From NCBI GenBank assembly GCA_016658885.1, contig GCA_016658885.1_4807.1: a stretch of DNA of 64,000 nucleotides; one strand, given 5' to 3'. Below are positions 54,409 to 61,929 of this stretch, piece by piece. The notes under the pieces are model-generated. The model had not been told where the DNA came from, did no database searches, and was given only the letters and a program-made list of their open reading frames with translations. The translations under genes and the position numbers were made by a program. Position 1 is the first letter of the stretch, and each line of letters begins with the position of its first letter. The DNA comes from a phage.

Positions 54409-55821
54409 TTATTCCCCTTTCAACCAAGCTTCAAATGCTTCGTCAGTTGCTGCAGAATCCGCAGCGGCCTTTTGTTTTGCGACTACACGCTGTTTTTGAC
54501 CGTGTTCAACGCCGCGTAGATAATTATCCACCACGTCAAACTCAGCACCATCAACGCACTTCAAGCCTAACTTTTTAGCGCCATATTTCGCTACGGACTT
54601 GGAGTCCATAGTTGCATGATCAAAGGCACCAACAACTTTAGACAGGCGCTGGTAGAGGCTATTCTTACGAGCAGAATCAGCGTAGAAAGCAGCAACTGCT
54701 GAATCAGATGCCATTGAGTGTTCCCCTTTTGCTGGACCTGGCGACGCTTTCGCCGCTTTTGTCGGTTTGTCATCTTTTTCGACCGAAGCCCCCTTTACGT
54801 TGCTGTTTTGCAGGCCGCTAACCACATCTTCAGCTTTGTCGCAAGGTGATACATCTTCAGCCTTGACTTCAACTTCTTCGTCTTTGACTTCGGCTTCAAC
54901 TTCTTCTTCATCACCTACCGCGCCACCTTTCAGTTTTGCAATAAGTGCTTCGATTTGGCTGATCAGTTGCGGAAGCTCGCCGCCAGCGTGAGATTCAGTT
55001 TCAACTTCAAACTTCTCTTCACCTTCTGGAGTCTCTTCAGCTTCTGCTTTGACTTCTGGATCAACCATCACTTCTTCACGTTCTTCGGTTGAATCCTTCT
55101 CTTCTGCTTTCACTTCAACTTCGTCCTGATGAGCAGCTTCGGTGCTCTCTTCATTCAGAAATTGTTCGAGCGCAGGGATCAGTGATTTCAGCTGTTCAAC
55201 AGCATTATCACGCGCTTTACCTTTTAACGGTTTTGGCATGTCTAAATCCTCGTTGGATGGTGTTACAGTCGTCAAACAAAGATGGTCAAAGCAACGACCA
55301 TCCAGCACCCGTGCACCTGGTACTCGACCAACGTCCACGAGAGCAATGTGGTTGCCGCGAAGAGTTGTTTGTACCACTTCATACGGCTGCCCGTCAAACT
55401 CTCCAGACTGTATGATGAATTCACAGTCATAGCCCAAAGACAAGTCAACCTTTCCAGAATCGATGGCCTTCTTCAGACGACGGCTAAAAACTTTAAGGTC
55501 GCCGCGCATCCATGGCTTGTCATAATAAACATTGCCAGTTAGAACGCCATCAACGCCATACTCTTCGGGTGCTGTGTTATCCTCATCACCTTCGAATCCA
55601 GAAAGCATTTCGTGATTGTCGATGAAAGGGATATTTTTGAATGAATCTATCGCTTCGGGGTCTTTCACCGCTGACTCTGGGCGATAAACTTTTACGATGC
55701 GATTCGGATCACCATCAAGTCCAACCTGACCTGCAGAATAATCAAAAATGCCAAATGACGAAATGGGACAACCCACAATCGTCAAGAATCCATTTTTGTC
55801 AATTTCGCGTGCCGTTTGCAT
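54409..55821 (-). CDS. putative scaffolding protein (possible prohead protease-scaffold fusion)
   Basis: About 470 aa; globular N-domain then highly acidic Glu/Lys-rich coiled-coil C-region; first gene of late capsid operon. Confidence 0.45.
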   Translation of the reverse strand: MQTAREIDKNGFLTIVGCPISSFGIFDYSAGQVGLDGDPNRIVKVYRPESAVKDPEAIDSFKNIPFIDNHEMLSGFEGDEDNTAPEEYGVDGVLTGNVYYDKPWMRGDLKVFSRRLKKAIDSGKVDLSLGYDCEFIIQSGEFDGQPYEVVQTTLRGNHIALVDVGRVPGARVLDGRCFDHLCLTTVTPSNEDLDMPKPLKGKARDNAVEQLKSLIPALEQFLNEESTEAAHQDEVEVKAEEKDSTEEREEVMVDPEVKAEAEETPEGEEKFEVETESHAGGELPQLISQIEALIAKLKGGAVGDEEEVEAEVKDEEVEVKAEDVSPCDKAEDVVSGLQNSNVKGASVEKDDKPTKAAKASPGPAKGEHSMASDSAVAAFYADSARKNSLYQRLSKVVGAFDHATMDSKSVAKYGAKKLGLKCVDGAEFDVVDNYLRGVEHGQKQRVVAKQKAAADSAATDEAFEAWLKGE

Positions 55822-55929
55822 TCGCATCCACCCTCAAATAAGTATTGTGTATTATATCTAATGAAAAAAACTTAGGCAAACAATAATTATGGTTTGAATA
55901 TGTATAACAACCGATATAGCCGCGCCTTA

Positions 55930-56215
55930 ATTAGTGTGATACGGATGATACGGATAAAATGAGGCGTATTTTTATCCGTATCGGTGTATAAGCCGCGCTA
56001 TCACTGGTGTGCTACGGATGATACGGATGATACGGATACTTTTCATATATAAGAGTTTATAAAAAAAATAAAATTAAATTAGATATATAATTTTAAATTA
56101 ATTTATTTGAATTCCTATAAAGTATCGCGGCAACGCGTATCATCCGTATCATCCGTAAGATTCTTTTGAAAACAACTACTTACTTGATACGGATGATACG
56201 TCATTATACGCGTGA
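55930..56215. promoter_or_regulatory. iteron-like hub B: tandem/inverted 9-bp ACGGATGAT repeats flanking an about 85-bp AT-rich core
   Basis: gatacggatgatacggat (55937-55954), tacggatgatacggatgatacggatac (56013-56040), AT core 56041-56125, cgtatcatccgtatcatccgta (56136-56157), gatacggatgatacg (56187-56201). Confidence 0.55.
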
Positions 56216-56244
56216 AATCCTGCGGCAATCCATTGCCAGGCGAT

Positions 56245-56382
56245 TCAGTGAATATTAAATAGCACTCCTGCAACTAAAACGCCAATCAGCATTGAGTCAT
56301 AAACAGCCCATTTCCAAGAAAGCAAAGAGTTGCAATTAATATTTCGCACTTTAACATAACGTGACTGAATAATCTTTTGCAT
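56245..56382 (-). CDS. small predicted membrane protein (about 45 aa), not in ORF track
   Basis: AAAGAGGAAG SD then ATG at 56380-56382; C-terminal hydrophobic MLIGVLVAGVLF. Confidence 0.35.
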   Translation of the reverse strand: MQKIIQSRYVKVRNINCNSLLSWKWAVYDSMLIGVLVAGVLFNIH

Positions 56383-56454
56383 AACTTCCTCTTTAGTTCA
56401 TATCAAATTAATAATTGCACAGTTTAAATTGCGCTTATTTACAACTATCTTAAT

Positions 56455-57306
56455 TCAGATAATTGGTATTTTCCTGCACTTGCAGTGTATTGCCCATCCA
56501 GGAGGACCGATGTCACCCTTTTTGAACTTCAATTCGCCGCCAACTTCCCATAGGCGCTTGTCATCAAGTTTGAATCTCATTCCGTCGACGTGTTCATGAG
56601 AGATTCGCGGCTCCTTTCCTGCTCCTGAGTGCGCCCACTCAAATTCTTCGACTCCATTCTGGCGCATCCTTTCATCGCTTAGAACGCAATACAATTTGCT
56701 TGTCTGGTCTTTAGCGATTAAGTCGACTCTCTTTGCAGAGAAGTGCTTTACGTTTCGCAACGCCGCCTGAATGCCTGACGTGCCTTGCTGGGCTGGGTCA
56801 GGCGAAGTCAGCGAAAGCATGACTGCTTCGTACACTCTGTTGTGAATATCCTCGCCGACCTTAGTAACTAGAGTCGTGTTAAACGTCTCGCTTGTTCTAA
56901 GAGTGTTCTCAACGAATTTGTTATATGTGGCCTTTGGCGCTTCTATGCCTGCGGACTTAAGGCTTGCGAATGTAGCAGAAGTGGCACCCTTTTCGACCGA
57001 TTTGATAAAATCAGCGGCAATCTTCGACCCAACACGTGCAAATGCCTTTGCCCATTTCAGTTGCAGCCGTTTCATAAGGGTCTGGAATGTCGAATCAGCA
57101 GAGTCTTGCGCAAAGAACTTCTGCACCTGCTTCTTTTCAAGCCACTCTGAAATTCCTGCCTGATAGTCATCAATCATCGCATAGCAAAGACCTTTCATCT
57201 CACGACGGTAGGCCATCGCAATAGCGTTTGATGGGATTATCGGACTGCCGCGCCCGATTCTATCGGGTGAGCGGCGTTCACGTTTTTTCGAAGCTTTAAA
57301 AGCCAT
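56455..57306 (-). CDS. putative head morphogenesis protein (minor capsid, Mu F / SPP1 gp7-like)
   Basis: About 283 aa from ATG at 57306; directly downstream of portal. Confidence 0.4.
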   Translation of the reverse strand: MAFKASKKRERRSPDRIGRGSPIIPSNAIAMAYRREMKGLCYAMIDDYQAGISEWLEKKQVQKFFAQDSADSTFQTLMKRLQLKWAKAFARVGSKIAADFIKSVEKGATSATFASLKSAGIEAPKATYNKFVENTLRTSETFNTTLVTKVGEDIHNRVYEAVMLSLTSPDPAQQGTSGIQAALRNVKHFSAKRVDLIAKDQTSKLYCVLSDERMRQNGVEEFEWAHSGAGKEPRISHEHVDGMRFKLDDKRLWEVGGELKFKKGDIGPPGWAIHCKCRKIPII

Positions 57307-57307
57307 A

Positions 57308-59683
57308 TCAACCTTGCTTCGGTGAATTAGTAGGATTATTGAGCGCTCCGTATGCTTGAGAGCAATCACCCTTCAACCACTCCTTGAATGAGTCTACATC
57401 TAATTCGTGGATTGAATCGAATCCATTCCAACCGTTACCAAATGACGCCTGATAAGCTTCTTTAGCTTCTTCTGCTGAATCGAATCCAAGCATGCATTTG
57501 TGTTCATCAAATTCGCCAGAATAATTATCATTTTGGTTAACGATGAATACTTTAGGCGACTTCATATTTGGTCCAACAAAGCAGTCGACTTCATCACCAT
57601 CAGCACCCTTGGTGCCTTTGATGAATCCGTAGTGGTGCGCCATTTTGACTGCCCATTCACCATCAAGACTGTTACCCCTGCGAATGCTGTTGCGAGGATT
57701 CTCGATGCCAAGAATCATCCCGTGCAACTTCATCTTAGGCAGCGACGCTGCATCCATCTTCCCTACGTTGTGTCGCAAGTTGACGACATTTCCTTTTACG
57801 CTTGGAATCGTGGACGGTTGCACCGACCTTGCATCTTTTTGAGGGTCAAAATCCACATCCTGACCTTCTTTAAGGTAATAGTCAGCAATACCCTCCAGAC
57901 CTTCTTTCAGTTGCGTTAGGACATCAACGTGATGGCTTGATTCGTCATCGGTATCATCCATGTTAATCTCAACTGGTGCCCTGTCAGGGTTTTCTGCCAA
58001 CTCACCACGCGCGGCACCTTCCGGCATTATACCAGTCTCGCTATAGAACTGGCCGCTCATCTTGACAACATCAGCCTTGGCCTGTTCAATATCGGCCTTA
58101 CCTTGCAGAACTTCACCAGCAGACTTGCCAAGCAATGCCATATTCTCTGGAGACATCCCTGGGGTTTCTTCTGCTGCTTCTTCCGGCAAACGGTTGTAGC
58201 CGCTGTTTTTGTCGTCCTTGATGCGGTCGCGCTCTTCATCAGGGGAGATTACGCCAGCATCGATGAGAGTCTTACCAGTATTCGCTCGTTTGTCGTTAAT
58301 CTCTGCAAGCTGAGTAGCAGTAAGTGAACCAACTGGCTCCCATGCCACTTTAACGTCGACTTCCACGCCTTCAGATTTCAAAAGGATTTTATAGTGACGG
58401 TCCAGAATCTTCGTCAAATCGTGCTGCTGACAAGTTTCCAATTCTTCGTGATAGCTGACCATCTCGAACTCACCAGTGGCGTTAAAGCCTTTAGGTGACG
58501 TCCCTAACAGTTTTGTCGACGGCACTTTTGCGATTGCGGCCACCAGCTGGTACTGGTTCATGATGATGCTGTCGAAGTCTGACAAGTTGATGTCGAACTG
58601 GTCCATTTCTTCTTTCTGACCAAGCACTTTGACTGCATAGTTGTCGCGGTACTTGATCCACATCATCAGACGTTCTGCAAAAGACCGCTCATTGGCAATA
58701 GCCTTGTCAACGTCGGTCCGCAGCGTCGTTGTACGCTTGGACATCGCCAGCAATGGCGCTTCGTTAGCGGTACGTTCAGCGGCATAGATGCGTTCATAAA
58801 TCTGCTGAGTCAGAGGAATGCCGCCGTAAATATAAGTCGGCTTGAGAATATCAGCTGGCTCATCGTTGCGCAAGATTATGAGGTGGCTGCGATGATAACG
58901 TTGTCCGCTGATTACCCAATATTCTGGGTCATAGAAGTGCTGTGATGCAGGGTCTGCTGTGTTTTCAGACGTCAGAAACGGCATCATCCAATAAGGGTCA
59001 ACCTGAATGATTCCCTTATAAGACCCCTTTGTCACACCATCAATGTTAAAAGGCTTGCTGTAATATTCTGGGTCATCGCTACGCACATCAAATATGATGA
59101 CGCGGATACCAAAAATATTTTTGAATCGTTCGGCTTCAACTAAGTGCTCTTTGATATTAAATTCTTTATCAATTTGCTTTAGGCGTTCGCTTGCCTGTAC
59201 TGACAATTCTGACTCAGAACTGGATTTAACTTCCCAACCTTTACGGACCGCATCGCGGCCTACCATGGAACACGCCTTGTTCACCAGCCAATGCTGTGCG
59301 ATGATGGCACAAGCTTGATAGCCGATGAATGACTGTGACAAATACCAGTTTTGAAGTTGAATAGGTACTGTGTATGGGTTGACTTGCCCTTCTGAACTGA
59401 TGTTCTTTAAGGCATTATCCATAACCTTTTTGGATACTGTTGCGGAATCGACTGAACGACCTTTTATGATTGCAACACCATCGCCATTAATATCAGGCTC
59501 ATATAAAGGGAAGTCATCAACCGTTTTAAAGGTCGGTCGATTGCTTTCAGTCTTTTCCCAGCGTTGACCGCTGCCGCGCCTTGCAAGGCGTTCAAACGGT
59601 GCCAATGGGTCGCCTGGCGGCATCTCCGCTGGTTCGGCTTCTGGTTGCGTCTTCTCCCAGAGTTTTATGCCAAGAATTTTCAT
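57308..59683 (-). CDS. portal protein with C-terminal extension carrying an inorganic-pyrophosphatase-like signature
   Basis: 791 aa from ATG at 59681-59683 (AGGTGG SD); between terminase and morphogenesis genes; C-terminus HHYGFIKGTKGADGDEVDCFV matches PPase D-[SGDN]-D-[PE]-[LIVMF]-D-[LIVMGAC]. Confidence 0.55.
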   Translation of the reverse strand: MKILGIKLWEKTQPEAEPAEMPPGDPLAPFERLARRGSGQRWEKTESNRPTFKTVDDFPLYEPDINGDGVAIIKGRSVDSATVSKKVMDNALKNISSEGQVNPYTVPIQLQNWYLSQSFIGYQACAIIAQHWLVNKACSMVGRDAVRKGWEVKSSSESELSVQASERLKQIDKEFNIKEHLVEAERFKNIFGIRVIIFDVRSDDPEYYSKPFNIDGVTKGSYKGIIQVDPYWMMPFLTSENTADPASQHFYDPEYWVISGQRYHRSHLIILRNDEPADILKPTYIYGGIPLTQQIYERIYAAERTANEAPLLAMSKRTTTLRTDVDKAIANERSFAERLMMWIKYRDNYAVKVLGQKEEMDQFDINLSDFDSIIMNQYQLVAAIAKVPSTKLLGTSPKGFNATGEFEMVSYHEELETCQQHDLTKILDRHYKILLKSEGVEVDVKVAWEPVGSLTATQLAEINDKRANTGKTLIDAGVISPDEERDRIKDDKNSGYNRLPEEAAEETPGMSPENMALLGKSAGEVLQGKADIEQAKADVVKMSGQFYSETGIMPEGAARGELAENPDRAPVEINMDDTDDESSHHVDVLTQLKEGLEGIADYYLKEGQDVDFDPQKDARSVQPSTIPSVKGNVVNLRHNVGKMDAASLPKMKLHGMILGIENPRNSIRRGNSLDGEWAVKMAHHYGFIKGTKGADGDEVDCFVGPNMKSPKVFIVNQNDNYSGEFDEHKCMLGFDSAEEAKEAYQASFGNGWNGFDSIHELDVDSFKEWLKGDCSQAYGALNNPTNSPKQG

Positions 59684-59845
59684 TGTTAACGCCACCTGAC
59701 AGTGAAAGGGAATCAATCTATATTATAAATATTCATGTGTTTGTAAGCAAATGATATGTATGGTGATCATAAATAGTTCATAAAATATTTTGCTTTTGTA
59801 TCATTTTGAGTTATATTTTAGTTAACCAAACGAAAGGAGATTGAA

Positions 59846-60501: not shown

Positions 60502-61929
60502 TTAAAGGTTAGAGAAGAAGCCGGATGCTGCAACAATTGGTTTCATCAACGCCATGATTGCTGCGTCCGCTTTGTTAGGCGATTTTACTCCACGCTTTGC
60601 CATATCCTTTTTGGATTCAACTTTGAACTTACCAAGCACAGACGTGTCTTTGCGCGGCGCTGACATCTCAAAAAGAAATGTCTCAATTTCTTCCGCAGAC
60701 CAAGCAGGAATCCCAAGTTCTGGAATGCCGTCTGTGTCGATGGAAATCAGCTCATCAGTCGGGTATACGGCCTGCCCTGTTGCATACTCATATGTCTTCC
60801 TGAATCGTTCGGCAATCTCAGTCCATTTTTGCGCTTTTATGTTTGCGAAATGGTCTTTATTGAGTATTTCAACGTGTGGTAACTCAAGGAAGACGTCATC
60901 AGGATCATCAACAGCACCTTGCGCGTTGAACGCATTAAATTCGATTCTTGGGAATGTTGGATTTTCATGGATTGCATACTCATTAAGCTCATCAAATTTT
61001 GAACCAGCAAATGCACCAACACCGATGGCGTCATAGGTAATTGATGCGCCGAATGTTAATGCATCTTTCCAAACTCCGCTTGCGGACTTAAGCAATTCAT
61101 CTTCCAGACCTTCCCATGTCTTGATGCCGCGCAATACGTTGCCCGTGACAAATGCTGTGGCGTTTAAGTCGTCGCCGTCGTCTGCCACGTCAAAGCCTAT
61201 ACGGTTAGACCCTGACAAACTCCATCCCAGCGTAGGGTGTTTGTGGAGGTTAAGCGCGGCCTTGACGAATGCACGGTTGATTACCGACTTGTCGCCGCCT
61301 GTCTTCGGTACTCCGCCATAAACGTGTTCTGCCTTTTTCGGGTCGCGCTCATACATGCCAGCGATAACGTCCAGCATTGTTTGCGACAAGAATGGATTGT
61401 CCTGCCAGTTAATCTTCTTAACGATGGCATTTTTAGGCGGTCGCATAACAAAGTTCTGGTAGACGAAATCAGCCTCTTCATCAGGGTTAAATATGATCCA
61501 TATTTCTGACCCTTCCTTACGAATTGTCGGCTCAATAATGTCCCACTGCTCTTCAGTCAGCGCGTGCGCTTCTTCAAGCCAAAGAACGTCAACACCTTCT
61601 GTTGATTTGATTTCGTCAACGTTGCGTGCGATACCGTAAAATAAGAATTCAGATTTTGTTCTTTTATGTTCAATAGAGTTCTTTAATAAATTGAACTCAT
61701 CTTTAAAATCAGAAATCTCTATTTTGTCTTTTAATAGCGTATATACTGATTCAGAAATCTTGTTCTGGAATTGTCGAACGCAAAGGAATTTTAATTTGAA
61801 GTTTGCCGCCAAATAAATAGCAAAACCAGCGGCATCGTGCGATTTGGAAGATGCACGACCGCCGTATATGACTTTGTATCGCGCTTTCGTCTTCCAGACT
61901 TCTCTTAAAGCAGGATTCAACTGGTACAT
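60502..61929 (-). CDS. terL: terminase large subunit (PBSX/Terminase_3-like)
   Basis: 475 aa; N-terminal ATPase motif YKVIYGGRASSKSHD; nuclease-domain-sized C-terminus. Confidence 0.7.
   Translation of the reverse strand: MYQLNPALREVWKTKARYKVIYGGRASSKSHDAAGFAIYLAANFKLKFLCVRQFQNKISESVYTLLKDKIEISDFKDEFNLLKNSIEHKRTKSEFLFYGIARNVDEIKSTEGVDVLWLEEAHALTEEQWDIIEPTIRKEGSEIWIIFNPDEEADFVYQNFVMRPPKNAIVKKINWQDNPFLSQTMLDVIAGMYERDPKKAEHVYGGVPKTGGDKSVINRAFVKAALNLHKHPTLGWSLSGSNRIGFDVADDGDDLNATAFVTGNVLRGIKTWEGLEDELLKSASGVWKDALTFGASITYDAIGVGAFAGSKFDELNEYAIHENPTFPRIEFNAFNAQGAVDDPDDVFLELPHVEILNKDHFANIKAQKWTEIAERFRKTYEYATGQAVYPTDELISIDTDGIPELGIPAWSAEEIETFLFEMSAPRKDTSVLGKFKVESKKDMAKRGVKSPNKADAAIMALMKPIVAASGFFSNL

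Follow-up and report, generated by a model that had tools for sequence, protein, structure and literature searches.

In a Wifcevirus, a myovirus of Escherichia coli, the portal protein carries at its C-terminus a domain that truly belongs to the phage-specific InPase clade (PF18823), a branch of the family I pyrophosphatase (PPase) fold. The portal gene lies in a 64,000-nucleotide stretch of phage DNA (GenBank assembly GCA_016658885.1, contig GCA_016658885.1_4807.1), the whole of which is here called the window. The portal-tethered domain may be a packaged phosphoanhydride hydrolase that is present when infection starts, an interpretation to which we give an even chance of being correct. It is supported by the results on family membership, fold, conservation and purifying selection and by the peptides of the domain that are present in virion preparations, while catalysis, substrate, release and delivery are the parts of it that we infer. 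Both the domain and its fusion to a portal are already known (Pfam, UniProt, Iyer et al. 2017).

The portal gene and its parts are arranged in the window as follows (aa, amino acids of the portal protein; AF2, AlphaFold2; pLDDT, predicted local distance difference test).

57308..59683, minus strand: portal coding sequence, 791 aa and a stop codon (open reading frame (ORF) list, Shine-Dalgarno sequence, relatives, PHROG 4660)
58280..59320, minus strand: portal core, Pfam Phage_portal_3 / DUF1073 (PF06381), aa 122-468 (E=4e-88)
58034..58150, minus strand: long helix, aa 512-550 (AF2)
57740..58033, minus strand: linker, aa 551-648, in which disordered segments (551-579 and 616-634, pLDDT <50) flank one helix
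57875..57943, minus strand: amphipathic helix within the linker, aa 581-603 (AF2 pLDDT 71-91)
57809..57829, minus strand: linker motif RSVQPST, aa 619-625 (alignment of 53 portals)
57371..57739, minus strand: InPase domain (PF18823), aa 649-771, a pyrophosphatase-like beta-barrel followed by helices (Pfam)
57695..57706, minus strand: IENP, aa 660-663, with the invariant E661, which aligns with E20 of E. coli Ppa (hhalign)
57584..57631, minus strand: YGFIKGTKGADGDEVD, aa 685-700, which holds the PROSITE-type signature (pattern scan, conservation, HMMER, hhalign)
57497..57511, minus strand: FDEHK, aa 725-729, with D726, E727 and K729 invariant, at the start of an AF2 beta-strand
57311..57370, minus strand: disordered C-terminal tail, the last ~10-20 residues (20 in these coordinates; pLDDT <50)

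Family membership and active site of the C-terminal domain

The PF18823 profile is matched by the whole portal protein with 158.2 bits and by its tail alone with 162.4 bits, against a cut-off of 26.8 (E=1.4e-46). The domain also has the invariant residues, the shortened type I PPase-like beta-barrel and the virion-protein setting of this family, the shortening being located between the first strand and the YG strand. The classical family I profile, PF00719, gives scores of 15.6 and 18.6 bits, below its gathering threshold of 23.5, the match being confined to a stretch of 26 residues that includes the signature. More specifically, the PROSITE signature and the PPase fold of a classical family I enzyme are present, but the PF00719 threshold is not reached and the full set of active-site residues is lacking. 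Neither NCBIfam nor PADLOC gave a match for the portal tail. Judged by its sequence, the portal InPase would work like a family I inorganic pyrophosphatase but is not one.

A sequence search of the PDB with the tail found portal gp19 of phage Pa193 (9B41) as the best match (E=6e-49), followed by weak matches; with a profile of 13 sequences, 15 of the 17 PDB matches were family I pyrophosphatases. A full-length AF2 model of the portal was built from 53 homologs, and the InPase domain has a pLDDT of 85-97 in it. The domain is a trimmed and divergent version of the PPase fold, and this fold assignment is sound. Thus, profile searches and the recovered fold bear out the relation to pyrophosphatases that a preliminary description of this DNA, made from its letters without database searches, had proposed.

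That description had singled out HHYGFIKGTKGADGDEVDCFV (portal aa 683-703, window 57575-57637) as fitting the family I pattern D-[SGDN]-D-[PE]-[LIVMF]-D-[LIVMGAC]. The pattern is indeed matched once, by DGDEVDC (aa 695-701, 57581-57601), and translation of the entire window in six frames gave no other match. For a protein of the portal's composition, 0.001 matches to this PROSITE-type pattern are expected, and the expectation for the extended element YG[FYW][ILVM]-x6-DxDxxD is ~1e-7. The YGFI element that had been noticed ahead of the signature is equally real, since the spacing of YGFI-6-DGDEVD is identical to that of YGYI-NHTLSL-DGDPVD in E. coli Ppa (translated from MG1655). The domain had been assigned to roughly the last 130 residues, which is correct as to its C-terminal location and slightly too small as to its extent (Pfam InPase, aa 649-771). 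The proposed likeness of AEEAKEAYQASF to the C-terminal helix of PPases is weakly supported, coming from a low-scoring pairing of GFDSEEEAKKAYLANYE with residues 155-171 of E. coli Ppa (-2.3 bits in HMMER; the same pairing at low confidence in hhalign).

A HMMER search of 1.84 billion cluster representatives returned 11,279 proteins at E<=0.001, and conservation was assessed in an alignment of 160 copies of the InPase domain, drawn from the best 150 matches together with 12 earlier ones. The invariant or near-invariant positions, all of them present in the window protein, are E661, N662, R668, G670, G675, W677, Y685, G686, D695, D697, D700, G704, Q717, D726, E727, H728, K729, G733, A740 and Y744. 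E661, Y685 and D700 are found in all 160 domains, D695 in 158, and D697 as D in 152 and as E in 6; each of the listed PF18823 invariants (E, R, YG, DxDxxD, Q, DE.K, Y) is kept in at least 152.

The InPase profile was aligned by hhalign with E. coli Ppa and with an 85-sequence Ppa alignment (Ppa and 84 homologs, 82-99% identical), the homologs being so close that they improved the profile little. The profile-profile alignment has a probability of 88-91% (E ~1e-6) and is confident in its first half, in which E661 is equivalent to E20, R668 to K29, G670 to E31, Y685 to Y55 and D695/D697/D700 to D65/D67/D70; R43 of Ppa is without a counterpart. In the second half FDEHK is set against the Ppa helix EYDHIK, which is structurally implausible. 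In the HMMER alignment to the H. pylori PPase, D726-E727 stands opposite the D-E of 'MDEK'. By this HMMER pairing, D726/E727 and K729 are probably the counterpart of D102-A-K104 in E. coli, in a register that is ambiguous by one residue. At the position of D97 (aa 719), 85 of the 160 domains have D and 42 have N, and no match to Y141 or K142 of Ppa could be mapped in the InPase domain by alignment.

In the classical PPases of E. coli and yeast, the attacked phosphate is presumably held by K29, Y55 and K104, and the leaving-group pocket formed by R43, Y141 and K142. By these equivalences the InPase domain would keep the metal and nucleophile carboxylates together with the attacked-phosphate residues, and its leaving-group pocket would be lost or remodelled. 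Because this pocket is altered (G670 for E31, no counterpart of R43), the substrate may be inorganic pyrophosphate (PPi) or a bulkier pyrophosphate of nucleotide type.

Place of the domain in the portal, the virion and related phages

The listed ORF at 57308..59716 on the minus strand is genuine and extends to a TTG at 59716; the start is assigned to the ATG at 59683, and a Shine-Dalgarno sequence (AGGTGG) lies 8 nucleotides (nt) ahead of it. The gene has the same length (2376 nt, 791 aa) in all eight Wifcevirus relatives that were fetched, and PHROG 4660 covers the full-length protein (1264 bits). The protein is identified as a portal by its PF06381 profile match, its orthology to a structurally solved portal and its position in the head module, and it also matches PHROG 146 'portal protein'. 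Its core is 62% identical to that of a Pbunavirus portal (P0182, phage NP3). Among the matching records, that of phage Bas98 is 97.7% identical to the portal gene, and 24 of the remaining 28 are 93-95% identical to it. In GenBank the Wifcevirus portals go by 'minor head protein', 'portal protein' or 'hypothetical protein', with no mention of an enzyme domain; UniProt uses the name 'Inorganic pyrophosphatase domain-containing protein', and at least one GenBank entry, that of Luteibacter phage Pluto, reads 'inorganic pyrophosphatase'.

The long helix at aa 512-550 would correspond to the barrel helix at the C-terminus of gp19 in E217 and Pa193, which reaches into the capsid. In the cryo-electron microscopy (cryo-EM) portals of these two phages the barrel points into the head and the models cover residues ~94-528 of 765; their authors report no discernible density for portal residues 529-765, and pyrophosphatase is not mentioned in either cryo-EM paper (0 occurrences). 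Since the barrel of these orthologous portals points into the head and the linker lies beyond it, the InPase domain is placed inside the capsid. Thus, the domain is tethered at the capsid-interior end of the channel, outside the channel itself, and is flexible or detached. The preliminary description, which had the module fused at the DNA-translocation channel, was right about the fusion to the portal, but the module sits on a linker of ~100 residues beyond the barrel helix, on the capsid-interior side.

Within the linker, a helix-compatible pattern at aa 581-603 is kept across portals that are 41-67% identical. The RSVQPST motif belongs to a family pattern, R-[ST]-[VT]-[KQ]-P-[SG]-[VT], that is common to portals of the same range of identity, with P623 nearly invariant. 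A motif of this type, sought as a shared protease site, was not found in the capsid, DUF2213, cement or Mu F proteins of the window. From its conservation the motif is a possible site for cleavage or docking of the cargo domain, and the helix may be one likewise. At the other end of the InPase domain, the codons of the disordered tail reach as far as the start and the ribosome-binding site of the gene that follows.

The InPase domain is retained in virion preparations. Supplementary tables of liquid chromatography-tandem mass spectrometry are available for preparations of phages vB_Eco4M-7 and ECML-117 (PMC7048862), the portals of which are 98-99% identical to the window protein in the tail. 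The peptides from the InPase region include LHGMILGIENPR, MPHHYGFIK, VFI[IV]NQNDNYSGEFDEHK and cMLGFDSAEEAK, and the signature peptide GADGDEVDcFVGPNMK and the extreme C-terminal peptide GDcSQAYGALNNPTNSPK (GDCSQAYGALNNPTNSPK) are present as well. Five of the seven theoretical tryptic InPase peptides were seen in vB_Eco4M-7 and four of six queried ones in ECML-117. Several linker peptides and N-terminal portal peptides (aa 12-32 and 45-53) were also recorded. In vB_Eco4M-7, 427 of the 559 portal peptide-spectrum matches (PSMs) fall in the InPase domain and 39 in the core, counts that are not quantitative.

Selection was estimated as the ratio of nonsynonymous to synonymous divergence (dN/dS) from a gap-free alignment of nine Wifcevirus portal genes. 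The ratio is 0.010 in the portal core, 0.020 in the linker and 0.016 in the InPase domain, where 70 nonsynonymous differences stand against 716 synonymous ones when all pairs are summed. Only four positions of the domain are variable, none of them a conserved residue. This strong purifying selection indicates that the domain is not a decaying relic, and the word 'degenerate', which the preliminary description had offered as one option, does not apply to a module that has also kept all family-invariant residues. As a separate observation, dS among the nine genomes is 0.55 in the linker and 0.42 in the InPase domain, about twice the 0.26 of the portal core (window 57311-58033 compared with 58100-59400), and the last 20 codons beside the Mu F start have a dS of 0.09 and a dN of 0. 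This pattern along the gene may reflect recombination or a constraint from translational coupling.

The C-terminus of related portals was surveyed among the 120 closest portal cores, which are 50-75% identical in the core. The InPase domain is carried by 92 of them. About 15 portals of 492-576 aa have no extension, two carry DUF5661 and several have 150-270 residues without a known family. In two others, P0258 and P0273, the same C-terminal position is occupied by Acb1 (PF23474, an anti-CBASS family); their cores are 53-56% identical to that of the window portal, and their head module has the same order as that in the window (portal - Mu F - DUF2213 - cement - capsid - adaptor). P0016 is a portal-InPase-ADP-ribosyltransferase fusion and P0022 a portal-InPase-topoisomerase IB fusion. 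The presence of Acb1, ADP-ribosyltransferase and topoisomerase at or beyond the InPase position suggests that the portal C-terminus is a carrier of pre-packaged enzymes.

Another portal with InPase, P0229, is named 'anti-CBASS protein Acb1 family protein' at NCBI; the name has probably spread to the shared portal part, and this would be an annotation pitfall. The true Acb1 portal P0258 is encoded at L010:2288-4309 and L011:762-2783.

Most InPase domains lie outside portals. Among 162 examined proteins 54 exceed 2,000 aa and are polyvalent, the domain being found in giant polyvalent proteins of 2,000-6,000 aa; stand-alone InPase proteins of 130-240 aa exist elsewhere. PHROGs with the domain include DarB-like antirestriction protein, virion structural protein and others. 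By tblastn against sequenced phages, InPase occurs in at least 471 records, with 294 from Pseudomonas phages (mostly relatives of Pbunavirus), 70 from Vibrio and 27 from Escherichia phages. One protein without a portal domain, P0013 (1116 aa), has two tandem InPase domains, at 612-735 (search of cluster representatives) and 773-907 (Pfam, which gives two InPase stretches), and InPase can therefore be duplicated within one polypeptide.

The clade was defined by Iyer, Burroughs, Anand, de Souza and Aravind in 2017 (J Bacteriol, PMC5512222), who described it as lacking a beta-hairpin of the classical enzymes and as occurring mainly in phage polyvalent proteins that are likely packaged. The same paper names a portal-InPase fusion explicitly, BcepF1.124 of Burkholderia virus BcepF1, and reports Mu F and portal domains that are joined to domains of the 2H phosphoesterase type. 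The view of the preliminary description that such a module is unexpected in a portal is thus superseded by the fusions published in 2017. As to function, these authors proposed either an infection-induced, nucleotide-like substrate or the clearance of PPi.

Possible functions of the portal-tethered domain

As a packaged hydrolase, the InPase domain, which is fused through the linker of ~100 residues to the capsid-interior end of each portal subunit and so is present in up to 12 copies per virion, would hydrolyze phosphoanhydride (P-O-P) bonds in a Mg2+-dependent manner. Iyer et al. had offered this interpretation before (PMC5512222). The carboxylates of E661, D695, D697, D700 and D726/E727 would serve in metal binding and water activation, and R668 (for K29), Y685 (Y55) and K729 (K104) would hold the attacked phosphate, as their counterparts presumably do in the classical enzymes. 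The portal C-terminus would be a packaging handle by which the enzyme is pre-loaded for time zero of the next infection, and release from the tether would be required before it reaches the cytoplasm. A narrower proposal, which we advance tentatively and consider rather improbable, is that the domain is a pre-packaged counter-defence enzyme. By analogy with Acb1 against CBASS, it would be released from its tether, maybe at the linker motif, and destroy a pyrophosphate-containing immune signal or nucleotide, for which an ADPR-derived or a (p)pp-nucleotide messenger may be a candidate.

Several points weigh against the packaged hydrolase. The reach of the linker, with ~77 disordered residues and a 23-residue helix, is at most ~300 Å by our estimate, while the tail is 1,300-1,500 Å long (E217 and Pa193 papers); a tethered domain therefore cannot reach the host, and delivery needs a cleavage, of which none is documented. 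Among the virion peptides are N-terminal ones of both the capsid protein (aa 4-10) and the portal; they give no sign of an active maturation protease, those of the capsid protein speaking against trimming, and the E217 paper mentions neither a protease nor mass spectrometry. The annotations of the DUF2213 protein of the head module conflict, maturation protease (PHROGs and the vB_Eco4M-7 paper) standing against Pa193_gp24, a putative scaffold that stays in the virion (newer Pfam and the Pa193 paper). Bottom-up mass spectrometry is blind to whether a domain is attached or cleaved, and PSM counts have no quantitative value. The purity of the samples is uncertain, since they held a helicase and other proteins that one would not expect in virions (PMC7048862). 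The Foldseek TM-scores of the InPase tail are 0.42-0.48. In the second half of the active site the mapping of D97, D102, K104, Y141 and K142 is unreliable, and the roles assigned to residues of the leaving-group and attacked-phosphate pockets are tentative. Lastly, no enzymatic, genetic or delivery experiment on any InPase domain was found in the searchable literature, in which the domain turned up in the computational paper of 2017 and in one unrelated mention.

A first alternative is that the domain is a true inorganic pyrophosphatase that, delivered or on unassembled portals, clears PPi and so pulls transcription and replication forward as a metabolic booster. The intact signature and Asp triad are in keeping with this role, which Iyer et al. 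list as an alternative (PMC5512222), and the infection cycle of 3-5 min reported for Wifcevirus (cited in PMC11990801) would fit it. We nevertheless consider it unlikely, since host Ppa is already abundant, twelve copies per virion are a tiny dose for a bulk metabolite, and the domain has G in place of E31, no R43 and a score below the PF00719 threshold. In addition, the slot is shared with the conflict enzymes Acb1 and ADP-ribosyltransferase, and the Pbunaviruses, which have the same domain, are not notably fast.

According to the BASEL paper (PMC11990801), Wifcevirus phages could not be isolated on E. coli K-12 until the strain had been stripped of every known antiviral defence. This statement and the short infection cycle bear on tests of either a counter-defence or a PPi-clearing role.

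Equally unlikely in our estimate is a permanently tethered capsid component, the 12 domains taking part in assembly or packaging without ever leaving the head. They might form a scaffold-like core, a spacer above the barrel or a plug, or might bind Mg2+ or the DNA end, and catalysis would either not matter or take place within the capsid alone. It would agree with the lack of a documented cleavage, with N-terminal, linker and C-terminal peptides all being present in virions, with E217 residues 529-765 being invisible both before and after ejection, and with the purifying selection on a linker that has a conserved helix and motif. On the other hand, ~15 close portals have no extension and others carry unrelated enzymes, which indicates that assembly does not need InPase, and the catalytic-type residues are invariant across thousands of homologs that are mostly not portals. 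An acidic metal site would also be a poor binder of DNA, and there would be little point in adding an ADP-ribosyltransferase behind an InPase domain that never leaves the head.

It is very improbable that a nested small protein, translated from an internal start, supplies the InPase peptides. The excess of vB_Eco4M-7 portal PSMs in the InPase domain over those in the core, and the stand-alone InPase proteins found elsewhere, would be accounted for in this way. However, none of the in-frame ATG, GTG and TTG codons from aa 540 to 660 is preceded by a usable, properly spaced Shine-Dalgarno sequence, and other portals do not conserve the Met positions; in addition, PSM counts lack quantitative value, and digestion of a compact portal ring is poor. 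An internal translation start for free InPase was accordingly rejected. A chance pattern match or a decaying, functionless relic of a fusion, for which one might cite the false positives that 7-residue PROSITE-type patterns do give and the sub-threshold PF00719 score, is a negligible prospect and was excluded by the match statistics (expectations of 0.001 and 1e-7, PF18823 at E=1e-46), the recovered PPase fold, the dN/dS of 0.016 and the retention of the fusion in 92 of 120 portals with identities of only 41-75%.

The function of the domain matters for the at least 471 phage records that have it, among which Pbunavirus is one of the genera most used in phage therapy, and in two cryo-EM atlases (E217 and Pa193) this third of the portal goes without an explanation. 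The question is genetically tractable, since the Wifcevirus phages Bas98-101 of the BASEL collection now grow on engineered E. coli K-12. If the domain were a delivered anti-defence hydrolase, the portal C-terminus would be an exchangeable slot for InPase, Acb1, ADP-ribosyltransferase and topoisomerase IB, and InPase would be a new class of counter-defence enzyme in ~470 sequenced phages, including therapeutic Pbunaviruses.

Neighbouring genes and closest known systems

The head module of the window runs in the order TerL (terminase large subunit), two small ORFs, portal, Mu F, DUF2213, cement and major capsid protein.

60502..61929, minus strand: terminase large subunit (PF04466, E=3e-37), upstream of the portal gene
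56455..57306, minus strand: Mu F-like head morphogenesis gene (PF04233, PHROG 324), starting 2 nt past the portal stop
54409..55827, minus strand: DUF2213 / Pa193_gp24-type protein (PF09979, PHROG 3778)

The DUF2213 protein is abundant in the virion mass spectrometry data, in which the N-terminus of the capsid protein is unprocessed. Phages WFH, vB_Eco4M-7 and Bas98 have a 921-nt gene right after Mu F (compare L012:939-1859), for which the annotation reads 'head fiber protein' or 'tail fiber protein'; the protein is abundant in the same kind of data. In the window an AT-rich spacer of ~60 nt replaces this gene in the interval that separates Mu F from a 45-aa ORF (56383-56454), and tblastn with the WFH fiber protein found nothing in the 64-kb window. 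Upstream of the DUF2213 gene, a region of ~560 nt (55842-56400) has no ORF longer than 52 aa on either strand and is 99% identical among Wifcevirus genomes; it may have a conserved regulatory role or encode an RNA.

Compared with known systems, the InPase domain shares with E. coli Ppa the beta-barrel, E20, Y55, D65-x-D67-x-x-D70, the YG[FY]I-6-DGD spacing and a D/E...K element in the following strand. It differs from Ppa in size (~123 as opposed to 175 aa), in the replacement of K29 by R and of E31 by G, in the lack of R43 and in a D97 position that is semi-conserved (D/N). It also has invariants of its own without a counterpart in Ppa, namely N662, W677 and Q717, with H728 present in 147 of 160 domains. 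Ppa is a free hexamer, whereas InPase is a domain of a 791-aa structural protein.

The logic of a packaged enzyme is the same as in T4 Alt, an ADP-ribosyltransferase, and in the toxins fused to Mu F/gp7, where an enzyme enters the head at assembly and can thus act at once when a new host is infected. Alt is brought to the head by a capsid-targeting sequence, and the prohead protease sets it free; the release mechanism of portal-fused cargo, unlike that of Alt, is only hypothetical. Acb1 resembles InPase in occupying the same C-terminal portal slot with identical gene order, but belongs to an unrelated Pfam family. It is a 2H phosphodiesterase that degrades cyclic-nucleotide immune signals, with a fold and chemistry unlike those of InPase, and the Acb1 of T4 is a free protein of tested function.

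The portals of Pa193 (gp19, PDB 9B41) and E217 are direct orthologs of the window protein, with 765 instead of 791 aa and the same head-module synteny. The tail of Pa193 gp19 is matched at E=6e-49, and tblastn to Pbunavirus genomes gives 58% identity. The first 93 residues of the Pa193 portal were unseen by mass spectrometry, whereas the N-terminus of the Wifcevirus portal was seen. The closest described system is BcepF1.124, which has the same PF18823 domain, the same invariants, the same order of portal core and InPase and, as in other PB1/BcepF1-like myoviruses, a head module of terminase, portal and Mu F. Nothing essential differs between the two, and the window protein is the representative of this arrangement in Wifcevirus phages of E. 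coli.

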